The notes under the pieces: model-generated
The model's input: only the letters and a program-made list of their open reading frames with translations
Databases searched by the model: none
Told to the model about the DNA's origin: nothing
Sequence record: PP400785
Source: Escherichia phage FL08
Direction: 5' to 3' (one strand)
Length of the DNA stretch: 64,000 nt
Translations under genes and position numbers: made by a program
Part shown: piece by piece, positions 1,647-63,335 of the stretch
How the letters are laid out: each line of letters opens with the position of its first letter
Numbering within the stretch: position 1 is the first letter of the stretch

Positions 1647-2335
1647 ATTATAAATTAATATATGATAATTTAATTAATAGAGCCCAGAATCGGGCTCGCC
1701 TTAATGGATACACTGAAACACATCATATAATTCCTAGATGTATGGGTGGTACAAATGATAAGTGTAATTTAGTAGAACTAACGGCTGAAGAACATTTTAT
1801 AGCCCATAAACTTTTAGCTAAAATTCATCCAAACCATTACGGTATAATTAAAGCTGTTATATGTATGGGGATGAATTCAAATACTCATGAAAGACACGTC
1901 AATAAATCTTACGCATGGGAACGTCGTAAAATGGCAGAACTTCAATCCGGCGAAGGTAATCCATTTTACGGAAAACACCATACGGAAGAACATAAACAAT
2001 ATATGTCAAAACTCATGAAAAGTCGTCCAATTACATGGGGAAATAAAATTAGTAAAACTAAAAGAATGAACCCAACGAAATGGACTGAAGAAGCTAAAAG
2101 ATTACATTCAATCAATCAATCGGGTAAAAATAACGGCATGTATGGAAGGAAACATTCCGCTAAATCTATTCAGAAAATTAAAGATAACATGCCAGATAAT
2201 TCAGGAGCTAATAACCCAGCTGCTAAACCTATAGAAGTAAATGGTGTTAAGTATAAATGTATGAAAGATGCTTCTAAAGCTACTGGATTATCAATGTACA
2301 AACTAAGAATACTTAGAAAAACAGTTAATTTATAA
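1643..2335 (+). CDS. Free-standing HNH homing endonuclease (MobE-like)
   Basis: 230 aa; HNH motif HHIIPRCMGGTNDKCNLVELTAEEHFIAH; repeated NPFYGKHH / NGMYGRKH NUMOD-like segments; TTG start overlapping the uvsW stop with AGAGG SD upstream; paralogous N-terminus to the HNH ORF at 29293-29934. Confidence 0.8.
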   Translation: MNYKLIYDNLINRAQNRARLNGYTETHHIIPRCMGGTNDKCNLVELTAEEHFIAHKLLAKIHPNHYGIIKAVICMGMNSNTHERHVNKSYAWERRKMAELQSGEGNPFYGKHHTEEHKQYMSKLMKSRPITWGNKISKTKRMNPTKWTEEAKRLHSINQSGKNNGMYGRKHSAKSIQKIKDNMPDNSGANNPAAKPIEVNGVKYKCMKDASKATGLSMYKLRILRKTVNL

Positions 2336-2348
2336 GGGCTTCGGCCCT

Positions 2349-2591
2349 TTGGAGAAAAAGATGTTACTAGAATTTAAACAATTTCTTTATGAAGCTTCTA
2401 TTGATGAATTTATGGGTAAAATTGCCTCTTGTCAAACATTAGAAGGTCTAGAAGAACTTGAAGCTTATTACAAGAAAAGAGTTAAAGAAACTGAATTAAA
2501 AGATACTGATGACATCTCTGTGAGAGATGCTTTGGCAGGAAAAAGAGCTGAATTAGAAGATTCAGACGATGAAGTAGAAGAAAGCTTTTAA
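2349..2591 (+). CDS. uvsW.1: UvsW.1-like small acidic protein
   Basis: 80 aa, GGAG SD, position downstream of uvsW; size close to T4 UvsW.1 (76 aa). Confidence 0.7.
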   Translation: MEKKMLLEFKQFLYEASIDEFMGKIASCQTLEGLEELEAYYKKRVKETELKDTDDISVRDALAGKRAELEDSDDEVEESF

Positions 2592-3550: not shown

Positions 3551-3947
3551 ATACTCTGTTACTGGAAGCCAGTTGTAGTTTTATTTGCTCAATATCATCG
3601 GGGTTATCGATGACCGAAAAGCGTATTTCTACTATCAGAGTATAATCATCATAAACTGGTATTACATTAACTGCTAATTTATCAATACGTGGCTCATAGT
3701 TTCTTACTGCGCTTTCGATATTACGCTCAACTGTGTCAGCAGTAAGAGGAGTCATATTTTCAAAAAGCTGGTCTGATAAATCACATCCAAATTCAGGGTC
3801 AAACGGTCTTGAACCTTTTCTTGTTGTAATAATTCCCAAAAGACTGTTTTTAATTGACCTTAATCCAAGTGATCTGGAAACATCTTTGTTCCAATCCATT
3901 TTCATTTCCGGGTCAATATCAGAATAAAGCTTATTAATATTTGCCAT
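3549..3947 (-). CDS. 25: Baseplate wedge protein gp25
   Basis: 132 aa, matches T4 gp25 length/sequence; SD separated from AUG by a hairpin (known gene 25 arrangement). Confidence 0.92.
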   Translation of the reverse strand: MANINKLYSDIDPEMKMDWNKDVSRSLGLRSIKNSLLGIITTRKGSRPFDPEFGCDLSDQLFENMTPLTADTVERNIESAVRNYEPRIDKLAVNVIPVYDDYTLIVEIRFSVIDNPDDIEQIKLQLASSNRV

Positions 3948-4573
3948 TATAGTAACTCAAAGAACTCTTTGAGGCCTCTTATTACATGAGCATGGGTTTT
4001 TCCACACTCTGGACATTTAATTGGAACAGCCAAATAAACGGTAGGCTTTAAAAGCATATCTTTTATAGCTACAATATCTGACTCTGTGATGATAGAATAT
4101 AAATCTTCCAGTTCTTTTTCATTTAAGTCTTCAACTGGAATGCTTTCCCCGTTAGCATGAATCGTTTCTATACATGATACTATCATGTGGGCTATATTTT
4201 TATCATCAAAAATTTTAGGGTATCGGAATTTAATTTTAATGTCACCCAGTGTATACCAGAGGTCTTCTGGTGCATCTATTTGTGTATGTAATAGATTTAT
4301 ATGGGTTGGTATTTCAGTTCCACAGGTGCACTTCCAGGAGTTTTCGTGATTAACTTCACCGAGAGAATGTGCCCATAAATGAATCAACAATAGTTCTGAT
4401 TCTTGGCGGTTTAAATCTTTTGCATTTGTGCAGTCTTTGATTAGCTTTTTAACAATTACTTCTACGGAACCATTATTTTTGGCAGTAATAAGTTCTAGAT
4501 ATTCTTTAAGCGTGAATGCGCGACAATTGATTATTTTAGAACCAACTCTCACATCAAATTTGTATTCATACAT
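3947..4573 (-). CDS. 26: Baseplate hub protein gp26
   Basis: 208 aa; synteny 25-26 divergent from 51; late promoter upstream. Confidence 0.88.
3948..3979 (-). promoter_or_regulatory. Gene 25 translation initiation region with SD-hairpin-AUG arrangement
   Basis: Minus RNA: AGAGG, then stem CUCAAAGA/UCUUUGAG, then 8 nt, then AUG; SD about 28 nt from AUG unless hairpin folds. Confidence 0.7.
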
Positions 4574-10863: not shown

Positions 10864-10867
10864 CAAT

Positions 10868-10896
10868 GGGGACCTTTCGGTCCCCATATTTTTATT
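10868..10896 (+). terminator. Intrinsic terminator after gene 54
   Basis: GGGGACC-TTTC-GGTCCCC hairpin followed by ATATTTTTATTT. Confidence 0.7.
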
Positions 10897-15383: not shown

Positions 15384-15388
15384 AAATT

Positions 15389-15406
15389 AAAGGCCCGAAG
15401 GCCTTT
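15389..15406 (-). terminator. Hairpin / probable terminator
   Basis: AAAGGCCCGAAGGCCTTT; identical 18-mer recurs at 63318-63335. Confidence 0.5.
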
Positions 15407-15593
15407 AGTAATCTAGTGGTAAGAGAGTACGATATATTTCAAACTTTGGTCCTTTTTCATAGGCATCAAATGTTTCTGTAAATTTATTATAAGCGTATGC
15501 ATCTACAAATTCGAGAATGACTTGTGATACAGAAGTAGAAACATCTCCACCTTCTTTTTGAGCAATGACAATTGTTTCTAAGTAAGCTTTCAT
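15405..15593 (-). CDS. Hypothetical protein
   Basis: 62 aa; ATGA overlap with gene 30 stop. Confidence 0.55.
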   Translation of the reverse strand: MKAYLETIVIAQKEGGDVSTSVSQVILEFVDAYAYNKFTETFDAYEKGPKFEIYRTLLPLDY

Positions 15594-19293: not shown

Positions 19294-19310
19294 AGTATTT
19301 TCCTCAGTAA

Positions 19311-19335
19311 GGGGCCGAAGCCCCTCATTTTATTT
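19311..19335 (+). terminator. GC hairpin with plus-strand T-run
   Basis: GGGGCCGAAGCCCC followed by TCATTTTATTTT on plus strand; lacks T-run on minus strand. Confidence 0.4.
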
Positions 19336-20175: not shown

Positions 20176-20205
20176 GAAAATAAAAAAGGACTCCCGAAGG
20201 AGTCC
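20176..20205 (-). terminator. Intrinsic terminator after the 30.9-like gene
   Basis: GGACTCC-TTCG-GGAGTCC followed by TTTTTTATTTT on minus strand. Confidence 0.7.
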
Positions 20206-20210
20206 TCAAC

Positions 20211-26502: not shown

Positions 26503-28090
<1,588 letters not shown>

Positions 28091-28120
28091 AATAAAATGG
28101 GCCTTGCGGCCCACTCCTTA
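28091..28120 (-). promoter_or_regulatory. denA translation initiation region: SD - GNRA hairpin - AUG
   Basis: Minus RNA: UAAGGAGU, then GGGCC-GCAA-GGCCC hairpin, then AUUUUAUU, then AUG; SD sits directly after the nrdB stop codon. Confidence 0.55.
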
Positions 28121-29296
28121 AAAGTATTTTTTAAAACTCATCATAACTTTATCATCAACATCATTATCAATCTGTGCAACAAGGTAAGATGACAGTTCTA
28201 CTTCTTGTGGCGCGGATTGAACATTATCAGAATTAAGATATTCACGAATCCAAGGATACGGATGTTTAACCGGAGCATCGGTAATTGGGCATGGAAGACC
28301 ACACTGTTTCATACGAGATACAGTTAAGTAATCAATAAAGCTCCACATGCTATTTGTATTTAATCCAGGAACATCGCCGTCTTTAAATAAATGAACTGCC
28401 CAATCTTTTTCTTGGCGGTTAACTTCCATGAAAATATCAACTGCTTCTTGTTCACACTCTTGAGCAATTTTAACCCATTCATCGCCATCAGTACCAGATT
28501 GAAGTTGACGAATAATATATTGGGTGCCTTTAAGGTGAAGCTGTTCATCGCGTGCAATGAACTTCATAATCTTGGCATTACCTTCCATGATTTCCATGTT
28601 TTTATGGAAGTTAAAGGTACATGCGAAAGATACATAAAAACGAATAGCTTCCAATGCGTTGATTACATGCAAACAGAGGTAAAGAGATTTCATTAGCTCA
28701 TGCTTCCAATATGTCTCATGCTCAATAGCATCTTCAATAACGTCTTCGTCTGCATTAATTTCTTTTTGGTATTCGATATCAGCTTTAGCGTTTTCCCAAT
28801 AACGAGTTTTAATCAGAACATCATCATAATAACGTCCAATGGATTCAGCACGTTTCATAATAGCTTCATCTAATACAATCTCATCAAATACCTTCGATGG
28901 ATCAGTATAAAGATTTCGCATGATATGTGTATATGAACGGCTGTGAATAGTTTCACTAAAAGTCCATGTAGCAACCCATGTATCAAGACTCGGGTCTGAA
29001 ATTAATGACATAAGTACAGCAGATGGCGCACGACCCTGAATGCTATCCAAAAGTGATTGATACTTCAGGTTATTAGTAAAAATATTTTGCTGATACTGAG
29101 GAAGCTTATTAAACTGTGCAGCATCCATCATTAAGTTTACTTCTTCAGGACGCCAAAAAAATGATAAAGATTTCTCAATAAGTTCTTCAAATACTCTATG
29201 TCGTTGAATATCATATCGAGCTAAACCCAATCCAGAACCAAAAAACATCGGCTCAGTCAAAATATTAACAGGGGATGTATTAAAAACTGTACTCAT
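28118..29296 (-). CDS. nrdB: Ribonucleotide reductase small subunit (class Ia)
   Basis: 392 aa uninterrupted; diiron-tyrosyl radical family sequence; no intron. Confidence 0.93.
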   Translation of the reverse strand: MSTVFNTSPVNILTEPMFFGSGLGLARYDIQRHRVFEELIEKSLSFFWRPEEVNLMMDAAQFNKLPQYQQNIFTNNLKYQSLLDSIQGRAPSAVLMSLISDPSLDTWVATWTFSETIHSRSYTHIMRNLYTDPSKVFDEIVLDEAIMKRAESIGRYYDDVLIKTRYWENAKADIEYQKEINADEDVIEDAIEHETYWKHELMKSLYLCLHVINALEAIRFYVSFACTFNFHKNMEIMEGNAKIMKFIARDEQLHLKGTQYIIRQLQSGTDGDEWVKIAQECEQEAVDIFMEVNRQEKDWAVHLFKDGDVPGLNTNSMWSFIDYLTVSRMKQCGLPCPITDAPVKHPYPWIREYLNSDNVQSAPQEVELSSYLVAQIDNDVDDKVMMSFKKYF

Positions 29297-29934
29297 TTAG
29301 AATCCTTAAATTTACATTTATCATAATGCCATCTTAAAGCATTGCCTTTATTAACTTTCTTGCCACAATGCGGACAAGGCGGATACTCTGTACCTTGCTT
29401 AGTTCTCAAAGAAATCAAATCACGGGTTTCTTTAGTATGAGGAACATCTCTTGTCGGAGAGATTGTACCATACATCGGATTAAGCACGCCGACTTTAGCA
29501 GCAGCTATATTCTTTTTAGCTTCTTCGGTTTTAGGTTTTCTCATGCGAGCTAAATGCTCTTTGGTAAATTTCCTTCCTTTAAGGGCTCTACTTATCTTTT
29601 CTCTGGTTTCCATAGAAACTTCACGTCCTGTAGCAGCTTCAGATAAACGTCGTCTACCTAATTCGTACAGTTGAGAAGAAATTTTATATGAGCGATTTTT
29701 ACCAGTCAAGCACATTAAACCAAAAGCTTTCTTTAATCCTGGAGTGTCATATATTTTACATAAAAGCCAATGAGCTATAAAATGCTCTCTACCTGTTAAT
29801 TCAACTAAATTTTCCTTATCATCAGAACCTCCCATACATTTAGGGATTATATGATGTGTCTCTTTATATTCTAGTAAAGATTCCCGAGCCTGAGCTCGGG
29901 AAATTAGGTCGTTATAGATTTTTTGATAATTCAT
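29293..29934 (-). CDS. mobE: HNH homing endonuclease (MobE-like, between nrdA and nrdB)
   Basis: 213 aa; HNH motif HHIIPKCMGGSDDKENLVELTGREHFIAH; C-terminal CPHCGKK zinc-finger-like; start overlaps nrdA stop (TAATG). Confidence 0.8.
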   Translation of the reverse strand: MNYQKIYNDLISRAQARESLLEYKETHHIIPKCMGGSDDKENLVELTGREHFIAHWLLCKIYDTPGLKKAFGLMCLTGKNRSYKISSQLYELGRRRLSEAATGREVSMETREKISRALKGRKFTKEHLARMRKPKTEEAKKNIAAAKVGVLNPMYGTISPTRDVPHTKETRDLISLRTKQGTEYPPCPHCGKKVNKGNALRWHYDKCKFKDSK

Positions 29935-36241: not shown

Positions 36242-36268
36242 ATAAAAAAGGGGACCTCTAGGGTCCCC
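36242..36268 (-). terminator. Intrinsic terminator after gene 32
   Basis: GGGGACC-CTAGA-GGTCCCC followed by TTTTTTATTT on minus strand. Confidence 0.75.
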
Positions 36269-49207: not shown

Positions 49208-49226
49208 GAGGGGCTTCGGCCCCTTG
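49208..49226 (+). other. GC hairpin with UUCG-type loop between genes 37 and 38 (no T-run)
   Basis: GAGGGGCTTCGGCCCCTT immediately upstream of gene 38 SD; likely RNA stability/processing structure rather than terminator. Confidence 0.45.
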
Positions 49227-53533: not shown

Positions 53534-53564
53534 TAAAATAAAAAGGGAGAGCCGAGGCTCTCCC
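53534..53564 (-). terminator. Intrinsic terminator upstream of motA promoter
   Basis: GGGAGAGCC-GA-GGCTCTCCC followed by TTTTTATTTT on minus strand. Confidence 0.7.
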
Positions 53565-53569
53565 TAAAA

Positions 53570-55344: not shown

Positions 55345-55425
55345 TCACTGGCGTCCGAAGACGCCTTTAGTTTTAAGATTATTACGATAGAACTGCATCA
55401 CATGTTCGTTATGGAAATTACTCAT
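55345..55425 (-). CDS. stp: Stp peptide (activator of host PrrC anticodon nuclease)
   Basis: 26 aa [26 protein letters not shown], matching the T4 Stp peptide as I recall it; start overlaps ndd stop (TAATG). Confidence 0.85.
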
Positions 55426-57802: not shown

Positions 57803-57820
57803 AAAGGGCCGAAGCCCTTT
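57803..57820. terminator. Bidirectional hairpin terminator candidate
   Basis: AAAGGGCCGAAGCCCTTT with T-rich tracts on both sides; near-identical hairpin at 58038-58053. Confidence 0.5.
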
Positions 57821-58018: not shown

Positions 58019-58050
58019 AATTTTCCTTAATGTGATAAGGGCCGAAGCCC

Positions 58051-58989
58051 TTATTTAAATTGTTCAGTAACGTCTTCAACTACTTCGTATTGGCAGGTAC
58101 GCATTTTAGCATCGTTGTAATCAATCGGAATTGATACTACATCACGAGGATGAACTTTAACTTTTACAACTCGGCTGGTTGAACTACCAAAGTGACGAAT
58201 ATAAGATTTAGAACACACATGTAGACCACGAGAACAAGTTTGTGTATCATCGTCATTCACACGAGTACGTGGCATTTTAACTACTTTACCCGGACTGTTA
58301 TCAAAGGTATTTGAGTGACAGTCAAAGTAATTGCTGCGAACTACTTTCCAAGCATAGAAGTAACCATCTTCTGTAATTTCAATATCGTTTGCTACCAAGA
58401 AATCAAAGAGTCGAGATACCGCTTTTTGGCTTGGGTTTTCCAACAGATTTTCCAAGAACGGAAAATAAAATTCAAAGTTTTCGCCTTTTTCCATCGAGTC
58501 AAGAATACGATCAACCAAACCAGACCGCAATTCAATATTTTGATAGAACAAGCTTCCACCTTCAATTCGAACATCGCCGGAAATATATTTTTCAACAGCA
58601 CGACGAACATTAATTTTTTGTGCCGCTTCTTCCAACTTGTCCGCTACAAGCAGATTAAGAATTTCCTGGAAGTTTGAATGAGTATTAGGAGTTGCGTTAT
58701 AAGTTACACCGTCAACAGTAATTGAAATGAATTTTTTAGATGCATTCCAAATAATGTCAGATTTAGCAACTGTAGCAATAACTGCATCGCTATTAACTTT
58801 AACTGTAATATCACCGCTAATAGTAACTTTAGGGTGTTTAGCTTCTTCAGCATTTTTCAAAACACGACGGATTGTGTCAACCGATACACCTTGCCAATCA
58901 GCCAATTCCTGTTGGGTATAATTACCACTTGAATACAGTTTAACAATTTCAGCTTGTTCGTTTTTGGTCAGGCATTTAATATTGTACAT
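58051..58989 (-). CDS. rIIB: rIIB protein
   Basis: 312 aa; synteny with rIIA; T4 rIIB length. Confidence 0.92.
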   Translation of the reverse strand: MYNIKCLTKNEQAEIVKLYSSGNYTQQELADWQGVSVDTIRRVLKNAEEAKHPKVTISGDITVKVNSDAVIATVAKSDIIWNASKKFISITVDGVTYNATPNTHSNFQEILNLLVADKLEEAAQKINVRRAVEKYISGDVRIEGGSLFYQNIELRSGLVDRILDSMEKGENFEFYFPFLENLLENPSQKAVSRLFDFLVANDIEITEDGYFYAWKVVRSNYFDCHSNTFDNSPGKVVKMPRTRVNDDDTQTCSRGLHVCSKSYIRHFGSSTSRVVKVKVHPRDVVSIPIDYNDAKMRTCQYEVVEDVTEQFK

Positions 58990-61446: not shown

Positions 61447-63267
61447 CTATTGGCTCATCCATTCTTTACGAAGGTCAGCATTATCTCCCATGAGCATTTC
61501 AAAAAGCTCTTTCCAGTTCTCAGGAAGTTTAACAACATCATATACTGGGTTTTGAATCATCTCACGATATTCAGATTTTTCCAAAGAGCCAAGTCCTTTA
61601 ATATAACGGATGCTATGTTTAGGTAGAGCATCTTTGGCACTCTCATATTCAGCGACTGTATAAAACCATTCTTGTTTTTTACCGACCTGAGCGATGATTA
61701 CAGGAGTTTTGACAAAGCGAATTCGTCCTTGCTCAAACAATTCTGGCCAATTACTAAAAAATCCGAGCAGAGAAGGATAAATGCTTCCTAGACCATCATG
61801 GTCAGCATCGGTCATAATAGCAATATTATGATAATTCAAGTTTTCAGCTTTTTCACCAAGAACTAATCCAGTGATTGCGCAAATATCAAACAGTTCTTTG
61901 TTTTTAAGCATGTCAGCATATGACATACCCCAACTGTTGAGAACTTTACCACGTAATGGATAACCACCGTGAAGTTCTTTATCACGAACATCAATAAGAT
62001 ATCCGATAGCCGAATCACCCTCAGTCAAGAAAAGAGTAGTGTCAGCATCTTTACCACAAAGATTCGCTTTGATATGTTTATGAACCTTAGCTTTAGAAGC
62101 CTTTTTAGCTGCTTTAGTTTCTGCTGCTTTTTCTGCCGCCAATTTACGAGCCAAAGCAGCTTCAATAATCGGCATTAGAATTGCTTCATTATTTAGAATA
62201 GCACGTGAAATCTTTTTAGCATCAAGCTGAATATGACTACGGATTTCACCAAATGGAGAAGTCAAACGCTCTTTAGTTTGAGAATCAAATCGCATGTTTT
62301 TCATATCACGAACAAACATAACGATAGTCAAACATTCTTTAACACGTGCTTTAGTTACATCAATTTTGAACTTACGTTTGATTTGTGGAATAAGGTCTTC
62401 ACAAATATCATCCATAACACAGTCAATGTGATGGCCACCATTCTTAGTATGAATGTTATTAACGTATGTTAATTGACGAAAACCATCCGGTGAACGACCA
62501 ACCGCAATAGAACAATTTTCTTGTTCTTGAACAATAGCATGCTCATCATATTGGCGTGCATATTTCTTAAAATTGCCCTGAACCTTTTTACCATTAAAGG
62601 TAAATTGAATATCAGGATAAACTACTGCGAGTGTCTGGAGACGGTCCAGTGTAATGTCAAGATAAACCTGAGACAGCTCATTAGTTTCAAATGACATAAA
62701 ATCAGGAATGAAAGTAACACGAGTTCCTTTCCATTTTCCAGGAATATCTTCCCATGATTTATTTTCCATGCCATTTGAACAACGAACTACAATATTATTT
62801 TGACCATCACCAGTTTCACCGACAAACATCACAGAAAAAATGTTTGTCAAACTAGAACCAACACCATTCATACCGCCAGTGACACGTTCTTTATCATCAC
62901 CAAAGTTACCACCTGCTTTTGGAATAGTCCATGCAGCAACTGGACCAGGAATTTCTTCACCGGTAGGTGTTTTAACCATCGCTTGTGGAATACCGCGACC
63001 GTTATCTTCAACTGTTACCTGATTATTTTTAATGGTAACATTAATTTTATTTGCGAATTTAAACTTAGTACGAATACCTTCATCTACTGAGTTATCGATA
63101 ATTTCATCAATAAGCTTAACAAGACCAGGTACATACTGAACACTTTCCCATTTACCAAACAGAAAGCGCTCATGCATTTCATTAGCAGAAGAGCCAATGT
63201 ACATGCCACTACGCTTTTTGATATGTTCAATATCGCTCAGAATTTTAATTTCATTCTTAATCATCAC
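61447..63267 (-). CDS. 39: DNA topoisomerase II large subunit (unsplit gene 39, GyrB-like)
   Basis: 606 aa single ORF containing GHKL ATPase region and Toprim motifs (TEGDSA, DADHDG). Confidence 0.93.
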   Translation of the reverse strand: MMIKNEIKILSDIEHIKKRSGMYIGSSANEMHERFLFGKWESVQYVPGLVKLIDEIIDNSVDEGIRTKFKFANKINVTIKNNQVTVEDNGRGIPQAMVKTPTGEEIPGPVAAWTIPKAGGNFGDDKERVTGGMNGVGSSLTNIFSVMFVGETGDGQNNIVVRCSNGMENKSWEDIPGKWKGTRVTFIPDFMSFETNELSQVYLDITLDRLQTLAVVYPDIQFTFNGKKVQGNFKKYARQYDEHAIVQEQENCSIAVGRSPDGFRQLTYVNNIHTKNGGHHIDCVMDDICEDLIPQIKRKFKIDVTKARVKECLTIVMFVRDMKNMRFDSQTKERLTSPFGEIRSHIQLDAKKISRAILNNEAILMPIIEAALARKLAAEKAAETKAAKKASKAKVHKHIKANLCGKDADTTLFLTEGDSAIGYLIDVRDKELHGGYPLRGKVLNSWGMSYADMLKNKELFDICAITGLVLGEKAENLNYHNIAIMTDADHDGLGSIYPSLLGFFSNWPELFEQGRIRFVKTPVIIAQVGKKQEWFYTVAEYESAKDALPKHSIRYIKGLGSLEKSEYREMIQNPVYDVVKLPENWKELFEMLMGDNADLRKEWMSQ

Positions 63268-63317
63268 TTATCCTCGTTTGGTTTCGGGAATATTATACTC
63301 CGGTAATCATAAAGCTA

Positions 63318-63335
63318 AAGGCCCGAAGGCCTTTT
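63318..63335. terminator. Hairpin / terminator candidate
   Basis: AAAGGCCCGAAGGCCTTT, identical to 15389-15406. Confidence 0.4.

Follow-up and report, generated by a model that had tools for sequence, protein, structure and literature searches.

A candidate split ribosome binding site built around a conserved hairpin at the nrdB/denA junction of T4-like phages

The window considered here is a stretch of 64,000 nucleotides from Escherichia phage FL08 (PP400785), a Tequatrovirus that shows 98-99% identity to RB7, RB32-type phages and T4 across the region carrying nrdB and denA. Both genes are encoded in the minus strand (Table 1), and the mRNA spanning their junction reads AAA AAA UAC UUU UAA GGAGU GGGCC GCAA GGCCC AUUUUAUU AUG AAA GAA, which is identical to the junction of T4. 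As the initial annotation of this DNA had proposed, a Shine-Dalgarno (SD) sequence is followed by a perfect hairpin with a GNRA loop and then by the AUG of denA, although the SD, which had been placed immediately after the nrdB stop codon, actually overlaps it, since UAAGGAGU contains the UAA. The nrdB stop and the AUG are 27 nt apart, whereas the gap between GGAG and the AUG is the 23 nt already estimated in that annotation, and it shrinks to 9 nt when the 14-nt hairpin is removed (or to the proposed 8 nt if counted from UAAGGAGU). The nrdB gene of the window is an uninterrupted ORF of 392 aa, while its counterparts in T4 and RB7 are interrupted by the I-TevIII group I intron; mobE is still found upstream in the window.

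Table 1. Features of the nrdB/denA junction and related elements in the window
Feature	Position	Strand	Description
nrdB CDS	28118..29296	-	392 aa, intronless; stop UAA 28120-28118; from the ORF list; homologue annotated nrdB in RB7, T4 and others
Shine-Dalgarno UAAGGAG	28114..28120	-	Overlaps the nrdB stop codon; duplex with 16S 3' end -8.7 kcal/mol
In-frame GUG	28112..28114	-	Annotated as the denA start in T4T and T4 RefSeq, giving 144 aa; probably wrong
Hairpin GGGCC-GCAA-GGCCC	28099..28112	-	5 G-C pairs, GNRA tetraloop; U28113-A28098 a possible sixth pair
Hairpin 5' arm GGGCC	28112-28108	-	
Hairpin loop GCAA	28107-28104	-	
Hairpin 3' arm GGCCC	28103-28099	-	
U-rich tail AUUUUAUU	28091..28098	-	Hairpin to AUG; without SD; anti-SD duplex +2.8 kcal/mol
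denA, endonuclease II	27680..28090	-	136 aa; AUG 28090-28088; PDB 2WSH match E = 1.5e-87
Gene 25 split RBS	3945..3978	-	GAGG 3978-3975; hairpin 3973-3956; spacer UUACUAUA 3955-3948; AUG 3947-3945
Intercistronic hairpin	2334-2349	+	
Intercistronic hairpin	10866-10887		
Intercistronic hairpin	15388-15407	-	
Intercistronic hairpin	19310-19325	-	
Intercistronic hairpin	20187-20206	-	
Intercistronic hairpin	36250-36268	-	
Intercistronic hairpin	53544-53565	-	
Intercistronic hairpin	55350-55365	-	
Intercistronic hairpin	57803-57820	-	
Intercistronic hairpin	58035-58054	-	
Intercistronic hairpin	63317-63334	-	

The beginning of denA is annotated in two different ways. The T4 reference genome (NC_000866.4) and that of T4T (HM137666) carry a 435-nt denA that starts at a GUG located 3 nt past the nrdB stop, whereas RB7 is annotated from the AUG; in T4 coordinates, the conserved AUG lies at 137927-137925 and the annotated start at 137951. 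If denA began at the in-frame GUG, from which the frame is indeed open, the hairpin would be nothing but the coding sequence of an N-terminal extension of eight residues. The GUG, however, directly abuts GGA and has zero SD spacing. An in-frame start eight codons upstream of the AUG occurs in only 4 of 25 lineages, another 18 have no upstream in-frame start at all, and the AUG is the only start common to all of them. Moreover, the frame relation between the nrdB stop and the AUG varies among lineages, conservation of the DenA protein begins at M-K-(E/D)-I-A, MKEIATEY is the N-terminus of the crystallised enzyme (PDB 2WSH) as well as of the constructs employed in the published biochemistry, and the covariation of the stem described below is RNA-like and not codon-like. 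A different start codon with an adjacent SD of its own, which the initial annotation had named among the observations that would speak against its proposal, was looked for, and the search returned just this GUG without spacing. On these comparative grounds a GUG start was rejected as extremely improbable. The comparative data favour the AUG, and denA in the T4 reference is probably eight codons too long (144 instead of 136 aa). Read-through of the stop codon to give a NrdB-DenA fusion was also discarded: the two genes share the frame in the T4 type, but this relation is not conserved.

The core hairpin has a predicted energy of -11.5 kcal/mol with its five base pairs, or of -12.2 kcal/mol with six, when the flanking U-A pair is included. 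Folding prediction, which the initial annotation had proposed as a check, gave for the 71-nt region a z-score of -3.1, and none of 200 shuffled sequences was equally stable. The conservation of the element was followed in an IMG/VR sample of 49 loci encoding DenA relatives, 42 of which have nrdB directly upstream. The layout of stop/SD, hairpin, tail of 6-10 nt and AUG is kept in 41 of these 42 nrdB-denA loci (28 distinct junction sequences), always with a G+C stem of 4-7 bp and with a loop that is mostly UUCG, or GCAA or GUAA in the T4 type. When the 28 sequences were aligned, 96% of the cells were paired and four out of six pairs showed changes on both sides, with a total of 24 compensatory cells that include replacements of G-C by A-U and of G-C by C-G. 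This covariation score was not reached by any of 500 shuffles and collapsed in shifted registers, whereas the consensus fold obtained with RNAalifold contains the core 5-bp helix alone. The alignment identifies the denA hairpin as a selected RNA structure. A search of the junction against Rfam returned only sub-threshold noise. Some contigs in the IMG/VR sample are of interest for a different reason: in five of them (L047-L051, around positions 1440-1520), which encode DenA-like proteins of 40-42% identity, the N-terminal part of the DenA reading frame contains TAG codons at places where the alignment has sense codons (IGF*FLTDV*LDQNG), which suggests a TAG-recoded genetic code in these large phage contigs.

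The position of the SD is equally constant. A motif of the UAAGGA type is present between the nrdB stop and the stem in each of the 25 lineages examined, and the median energy of its duplex with the 3' end of the 16S rRNA is -5.6 kcal/mol for the region 5' of the hairpin versus +2.2 kcal/mol in the tail. None of the 25 lineages has an SD in the 6-10 nt tail, where duplex energies are -0.1 kcal/mol or weaker. The linear distance from the SD to the AUG is 20-27 nt, whereas excision of the hairpin leaves 5-9 nt in 24 of the 25 lineages. The annotated RB7 genome was used to obtain a baseline from the 51 same-strand genes around denA: the 38 other genes bearing an SD have it at a spacing of 2-11 nt, and only denA, at 22 nt, falls outside this range, with an SD that ranks among the strongest of the 51. 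In the same line, all 572 ATG or GTG codons of the window that open at least 60 codons were scanned for the succession of SD, hairpin, SD-free tail of 4-10 nt and start codon, and denA and gene 25 were the only matches. The arrangement at denA exceeds what is expected by chance, as indicated by the fold z-score, the covariation and the mere two matches of the window scan. Taken together, denA combines a strong but distant SD (>15 nt), no SD at the canonical distance, and a hairpin in the spacer that is conserved with compensatory changes, which are the sequence hallmarks of a split ribosome binding site (RBS) of the T4 gene 38/25 type. A split RBS is the best-supported explanation for denA translation, and we regard it as rather probable. 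Accessible literature yielded no published experiment on the nrdB/denA junction, and literature searches no mapping of T4 3' ends at nrdB/denA or ribosome profiling; similarly, no description of a split RBS at denA was found in the searchable literature, although an earlier mention in primary papers is possible.

Thermodynamic models of the window sequence also predict a more extensive fold. The minimum free energy structure has a helix of 10 bp (-16.4 kcal/mol) and reaches -18.0 kcal/mol with an outer CUUUUA/UGAAAG helix. The extension is made of three G-U pairs and one A-U pair, which set GGAG against the UUUU tail, and the outer helix touches the AUG; in this model the unpaired probability is 0.01-0.3 for the SD and about 0.3-0.4 for the AUG. 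Such GGAG-UUUU pairing in the T4-type sequence would hinder the use of the SD and counts against a split RBS. It could even be read as a translational repressor, in which the SD would be held against the U-tail, and the AUG region against the 3' end of nrdB, by one extended helix, so that denA would stay silent until ribosomes translating nrdB melt the structure. When all lineages are considered, about 70% of the cells at the four extension pairs are compatible with G-U or A-U pairing, which is consistent with this possibility; none of these four pairs, however, shows any compensatory change, and pairing is to be expected whenever a purine-rich SD faces a U-rich tail. Moreover, RNAalifold leaves the extension out, the mean accessibility of the SD ranges from 0.08 to 0.77 among lineages, and the extension is worth about -4 kcal/mol, which is weaker than the -8.7 kcal/mol of the duplex between SD and anti-SD. 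A helix sequestering the SD, without covariation and outside of the consensus fold, was consequently rejected as a conserved feature, and a repressor role seems to us very unlikely. We rather regard the extension as a by-product of base composition, or at most a lineage-specific damper that would be removed by the ribosome terminating at nrdB.

Reviews of the field list exactly two T4 cases where a hairpin between SD and AUG restores the spacing, gene 38 (22 nt reduced to 5 nt) and gene 25 (27 nt reduced to 11 nt); mutations destabilising the hairpin lower the translation of both genes (PMC3014915; PMC7297116). The initial annotation had taken gene 25, a split RBS with experimental support (PMC3014915), as the model for denA, and a matching architecture is indeed found in the window where it had been located (3948-3979), with a linear spacing of 27 nt as published (PMC3014915). 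As in denA, the SD of gene 25 lies directly past the upstream stop codons and is followed by a spacer hairpin, an 8-nt tail and the AUG, all of it conserved among T-even phages. The gene 25 hairpin, however, is A/U-rich and weaker (7 bp, -7.4 kcal/mol), has neither an extra-stable tetraloop nor a U-tract, and its SD is a GAGG with 27 nt of linear and 9-11 nt of effective spacing. A closer relative is found at the T4 gene 37/38 junction, which reads GCA UAA GGAG A GGGGC UUCG GCCC UUC UAAAU AUG and folds into a GAGGGGC-UUCG-GCCCUUC hairpin of -11.4 kcal/mol. Gene 38 shares with denA the UAAGGAG motif over the upstream UAA stop, the G+C tetraloop hairpin of about -11.5 kcal/mol, the short A/U tail and the AUG, and even the distances are similar, either from stop to AUG (26 nt in gene 38, 27 nt in denA) or linearly from SD to AUG (22 nt and 22-23 nt, respectively). 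A covariance model built from the denA junctions matches T4 gene 37/38 with 27.8 bits (E = 0.0075), which is the best complete match to the succession of stop/SD, hairpin, tail and AUG, although two ordinary stop-hairpin junctions of the window score higher.

There are also differences between the two junctions. The tail of gene 38 (5 nt) is A-rich and not terminator-like (score of -2.48), whereas that of denA (7-8 nt) is U-rich, with a score of -4.77; the loop is UUCG in gene 38 but GCAA in denA of the T4 type; and the published mutational support belongs to gene 38. Judged from these comparisons, denA is a closer twin of T4 gene 37/38 than of gene 25. Hence, the split-RBS architecture put forward in the initial annotation stands, with a stable hairpin, a sole SD 5' of it and the AUG 8 nt 3', conserved with compensatory changes across Tevenvirinae lineages, whereas gene 25 gives way to gene 37/38 as its model. 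The thrS mRNA of E. coli also tolerates a hairpin within the ribosome binding region (PMC7297116), but there the hairpin is a protein operator located 5' of a normally spaced SD, whereas that of denA lies between SD and AUG and gives no indication of a protein ligand. Two other matches of the covariance model were discarded as split sites. The one at 57832-57788 is an ordinary stop-hairpin junction with its SD 3' of the hairpin. The other, at 63355-63302 (-), reads UAAAUAAAAGGCC-UUCG-GGCCUUU-AGCUUU-AUG and lies upstream of a gene 39-like topoisomerase ORF (61447-63267); no ORF of at least 50 aa starts from the aligned AUG, and it also looks like an ordinary stop-hairpin junction.

These ordinary junctions belong to a much larger family. 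The window contains around 20 intercistronic G+C hairpins that are capped by UUCG or GNRA tetraloops and located a few nucleotides from stop codons (examples in Table 1), which can be split into those followed by strong U-tracts, thus terminator-like, and those with the SD of the next gene directly after them, whose tail scores are at background. The denA hairpin is a member of this generic T-even family, with which it shares the G+C stem and the UUCG or GNRA loop near a stop codon. In other junctions with a close gene start, the SD is placed 3' of the hairpin (2334+, 49209+, 55365-, 59017- and 19325-), whereas at denA alone the 6-10 nt of tail leave no space for an SD, and a conserved one is found 5' of the hairpin instead. 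The window has its own gene 38-like ORF of the T2 type (263 aa, start around 49236), which is preceded by a stop codon, an AGGGGC-UUCG-GCCCCU hairpin at 49209-49224 (+), a normal SD (UGGAGG) and the AUG; its hairpin is therefore 5' of a normal SD, whereas T4 gene 38 (L056, 820-852) has a split site. In Krischvirus, denA follows a different gene, and a hairpin with a GAAA loop and a U-run precedes a separate GAGGAAAGGA SD. As the same class of hairpins usually sits 5' of a normal SD, Krischvirus denA included, this distribution indicates that the denA hairpin is not there solely for the RBS.

A candidate for a further role is transcription termination. The window has a 6-bp stem followed by UUUUAUU, and six of the eight nucleotides before the denA AUG are U, the highest number among the 51 RB7 leaders (on average 2.3 U and 3.6 A). 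The window promoter/terminator scan was deemed uninformative at denA and was substituted by a TransTermHP-style tail score, which for the denA tail falls beyond the first percentile (-4.27) of the genome-wide background and outperforms the mobE terminator (-3.46), with a median of -3.77 over the 25 lineages. This internal terminator of mobE has been validated experimentally, with an efficiency of about 30% (PMC2790892), and corresponds to the sole call of the terminator scan (29881-29902 on the minus strand, inside a mobE-like HNH ORF at 29293-29934). The scan did not call the denA hairpin in the window; the likely reason is that its stem extension tolerates G-T pairs and takes up the T-run. 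On the basis of these tails, the hairpin and U-tract could primarily be a partial intrinsic terminator of nrdA-nrdB transcripts, a barrier to 3' exonucleases, or both, with denA translated by reinitiation on read-through RNA and the hairpin being tolerated without any enhancing effect. In this regard, TransTerm calls a terminator at the hairpin upstream of denA in RB49 (Krischvirus), the many similar hairpins after stop codons of the window are in keeping with such a function, and some phages express denA from stop/start overlaps without any hairpin. In the L025 contig (IMGVR_UViG_2974786931_000001, around 1490-1503), the whole intergenic element is absent and the UGA of nrdB overlaps the AUG of denA (UUAUGA), and in T4-like phages of Aeromonas denA likewise overlaps the upstream ORF through AUGA junctions. 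The L025 contig combines a T4-like 3' end of nrdB with a denA similar to that of L023, a combination that hints at recombination at precisely this place.

Several data, however, fit poorly with termination as the main role. With its 5-6 bp the stem is short, a U-tract is lacking in two lineages (L030 and L031), which stay at the background value of -2.0, and several others have weak ones. The hairpin at nrdB/denA of RB69 is absent from the 31 terminators given by TransTerm for this phage. Moreover, the stop codon is just 4-5 nt from the stem, so that a ribosome sitting there would block its folding. Termination also has to be incomplete, given that the junction cannot accommodate a separate denA promoter and that any transcript read for denA includes the hairpin. 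Finally, a terminator alone would leave unexplained both the conserved SD of the UAAGGA type and the 5-9 nt spacing after excision. We consider this explanation unlikely on balance when taken as the primary function, whereas a weak or partial terminator, or a stabiliser of the 3' end of nrdB mRNA, likely coexists with the split RBS as far as the tails can tell.

Under the split-RBS reading, denA would be translated from the AUG at 28090 through a non-contiguous site whose only SD is the UAAGGAG at the nrdB stop. Folding of the hairpin would convert the 22-23 nt of linear distance into a gap of some 7-9 unpaired nt and one helix width, and a 30S subunit bound at the SD could then place the AUG in the P site, in the same layout as in T4 genes 38 and 25. 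The hairpin and its U-rich tail would probably also provide nrdB transcripts with a weak intrinsic terminator or a 3' barrier, in which case production of denA would depend entirely on read-through RNA and remain low. The UAAGGAG shares nucleotides with the nrdB stop, and the stem lies 4-5 nt further on, so that a terminating ribosome must unfold the element and leave the SD exposed. Ribosomes that finish nrdB would in this way be well placed to re-engage the SD, which makes the structure-dependent coupling of denA to nrdB suggested in the initial annotation plausible from the arrangement of the junction. Enhancement of initiation by the hairpin, partial termination and translational coupling are all steps that we infer from the analysis. 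Direct coupling seems to offer a substitute: the sequence of L025, which has no element and overlaps UGA with AUG, indicates that the hairpin is dispensable where such coupling is available.

These steps can be joined into a three-way coupler, where the same hairpin would be both a leaky terminator of nrdB and the part of the denA RBS that collapses the spacer. A ribosome at the nrdB UAA, 4-5 nt from the stem, would prevent folding of the terminator and allow read-through, it would then be released onto the SD that overlaps its own stop codon, and the refolded hairpin would hand the AUG to the same subunit. If this were true, the closeness with which nrdB translation trails transcription would determine the output of a toxic nuclease, but we regard the complete scheme as speculative and quite unlikely. 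The GGAG could alternatively be a target for RegB, an activity that together with S1 prefers a GGAG that precedes an A-rich single strand; structured intergenic GGAGs are resistant (PMC1702504), and this reading was rejected. The GGAG of denA is probably a poor RegB substrate by analogy, and its structure might, speculatively, shield it from RegB.

Altogether, the comparative data make denA a likely third example of a split RBS beside T4 genes 38 and 25, and not a new mechanism. Split SD sites have so far rested on those two T4 genes, and a third, covarying case would demonstrate that tetraloop hairpins of 14-16 nt between the SD and the start codon are routinely compatible with binding of the 30S subunit, and also that the intercistronic hairpins of T-even phages can enter initiation regions. 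In practical terms, the start of denA would be corrected in the T4 reference annotation, with a product of 136 aa and not 144 aa, and gene callers and RBS calculators relying on linear SD spacing should be used with caution. Moreover, the junction, together with its natural variants lacking the hairpin or having the SD after it, would offer a compact system to see how RNA structure, termination and reinitiation act together to limit the amount of a toxic nuclease.
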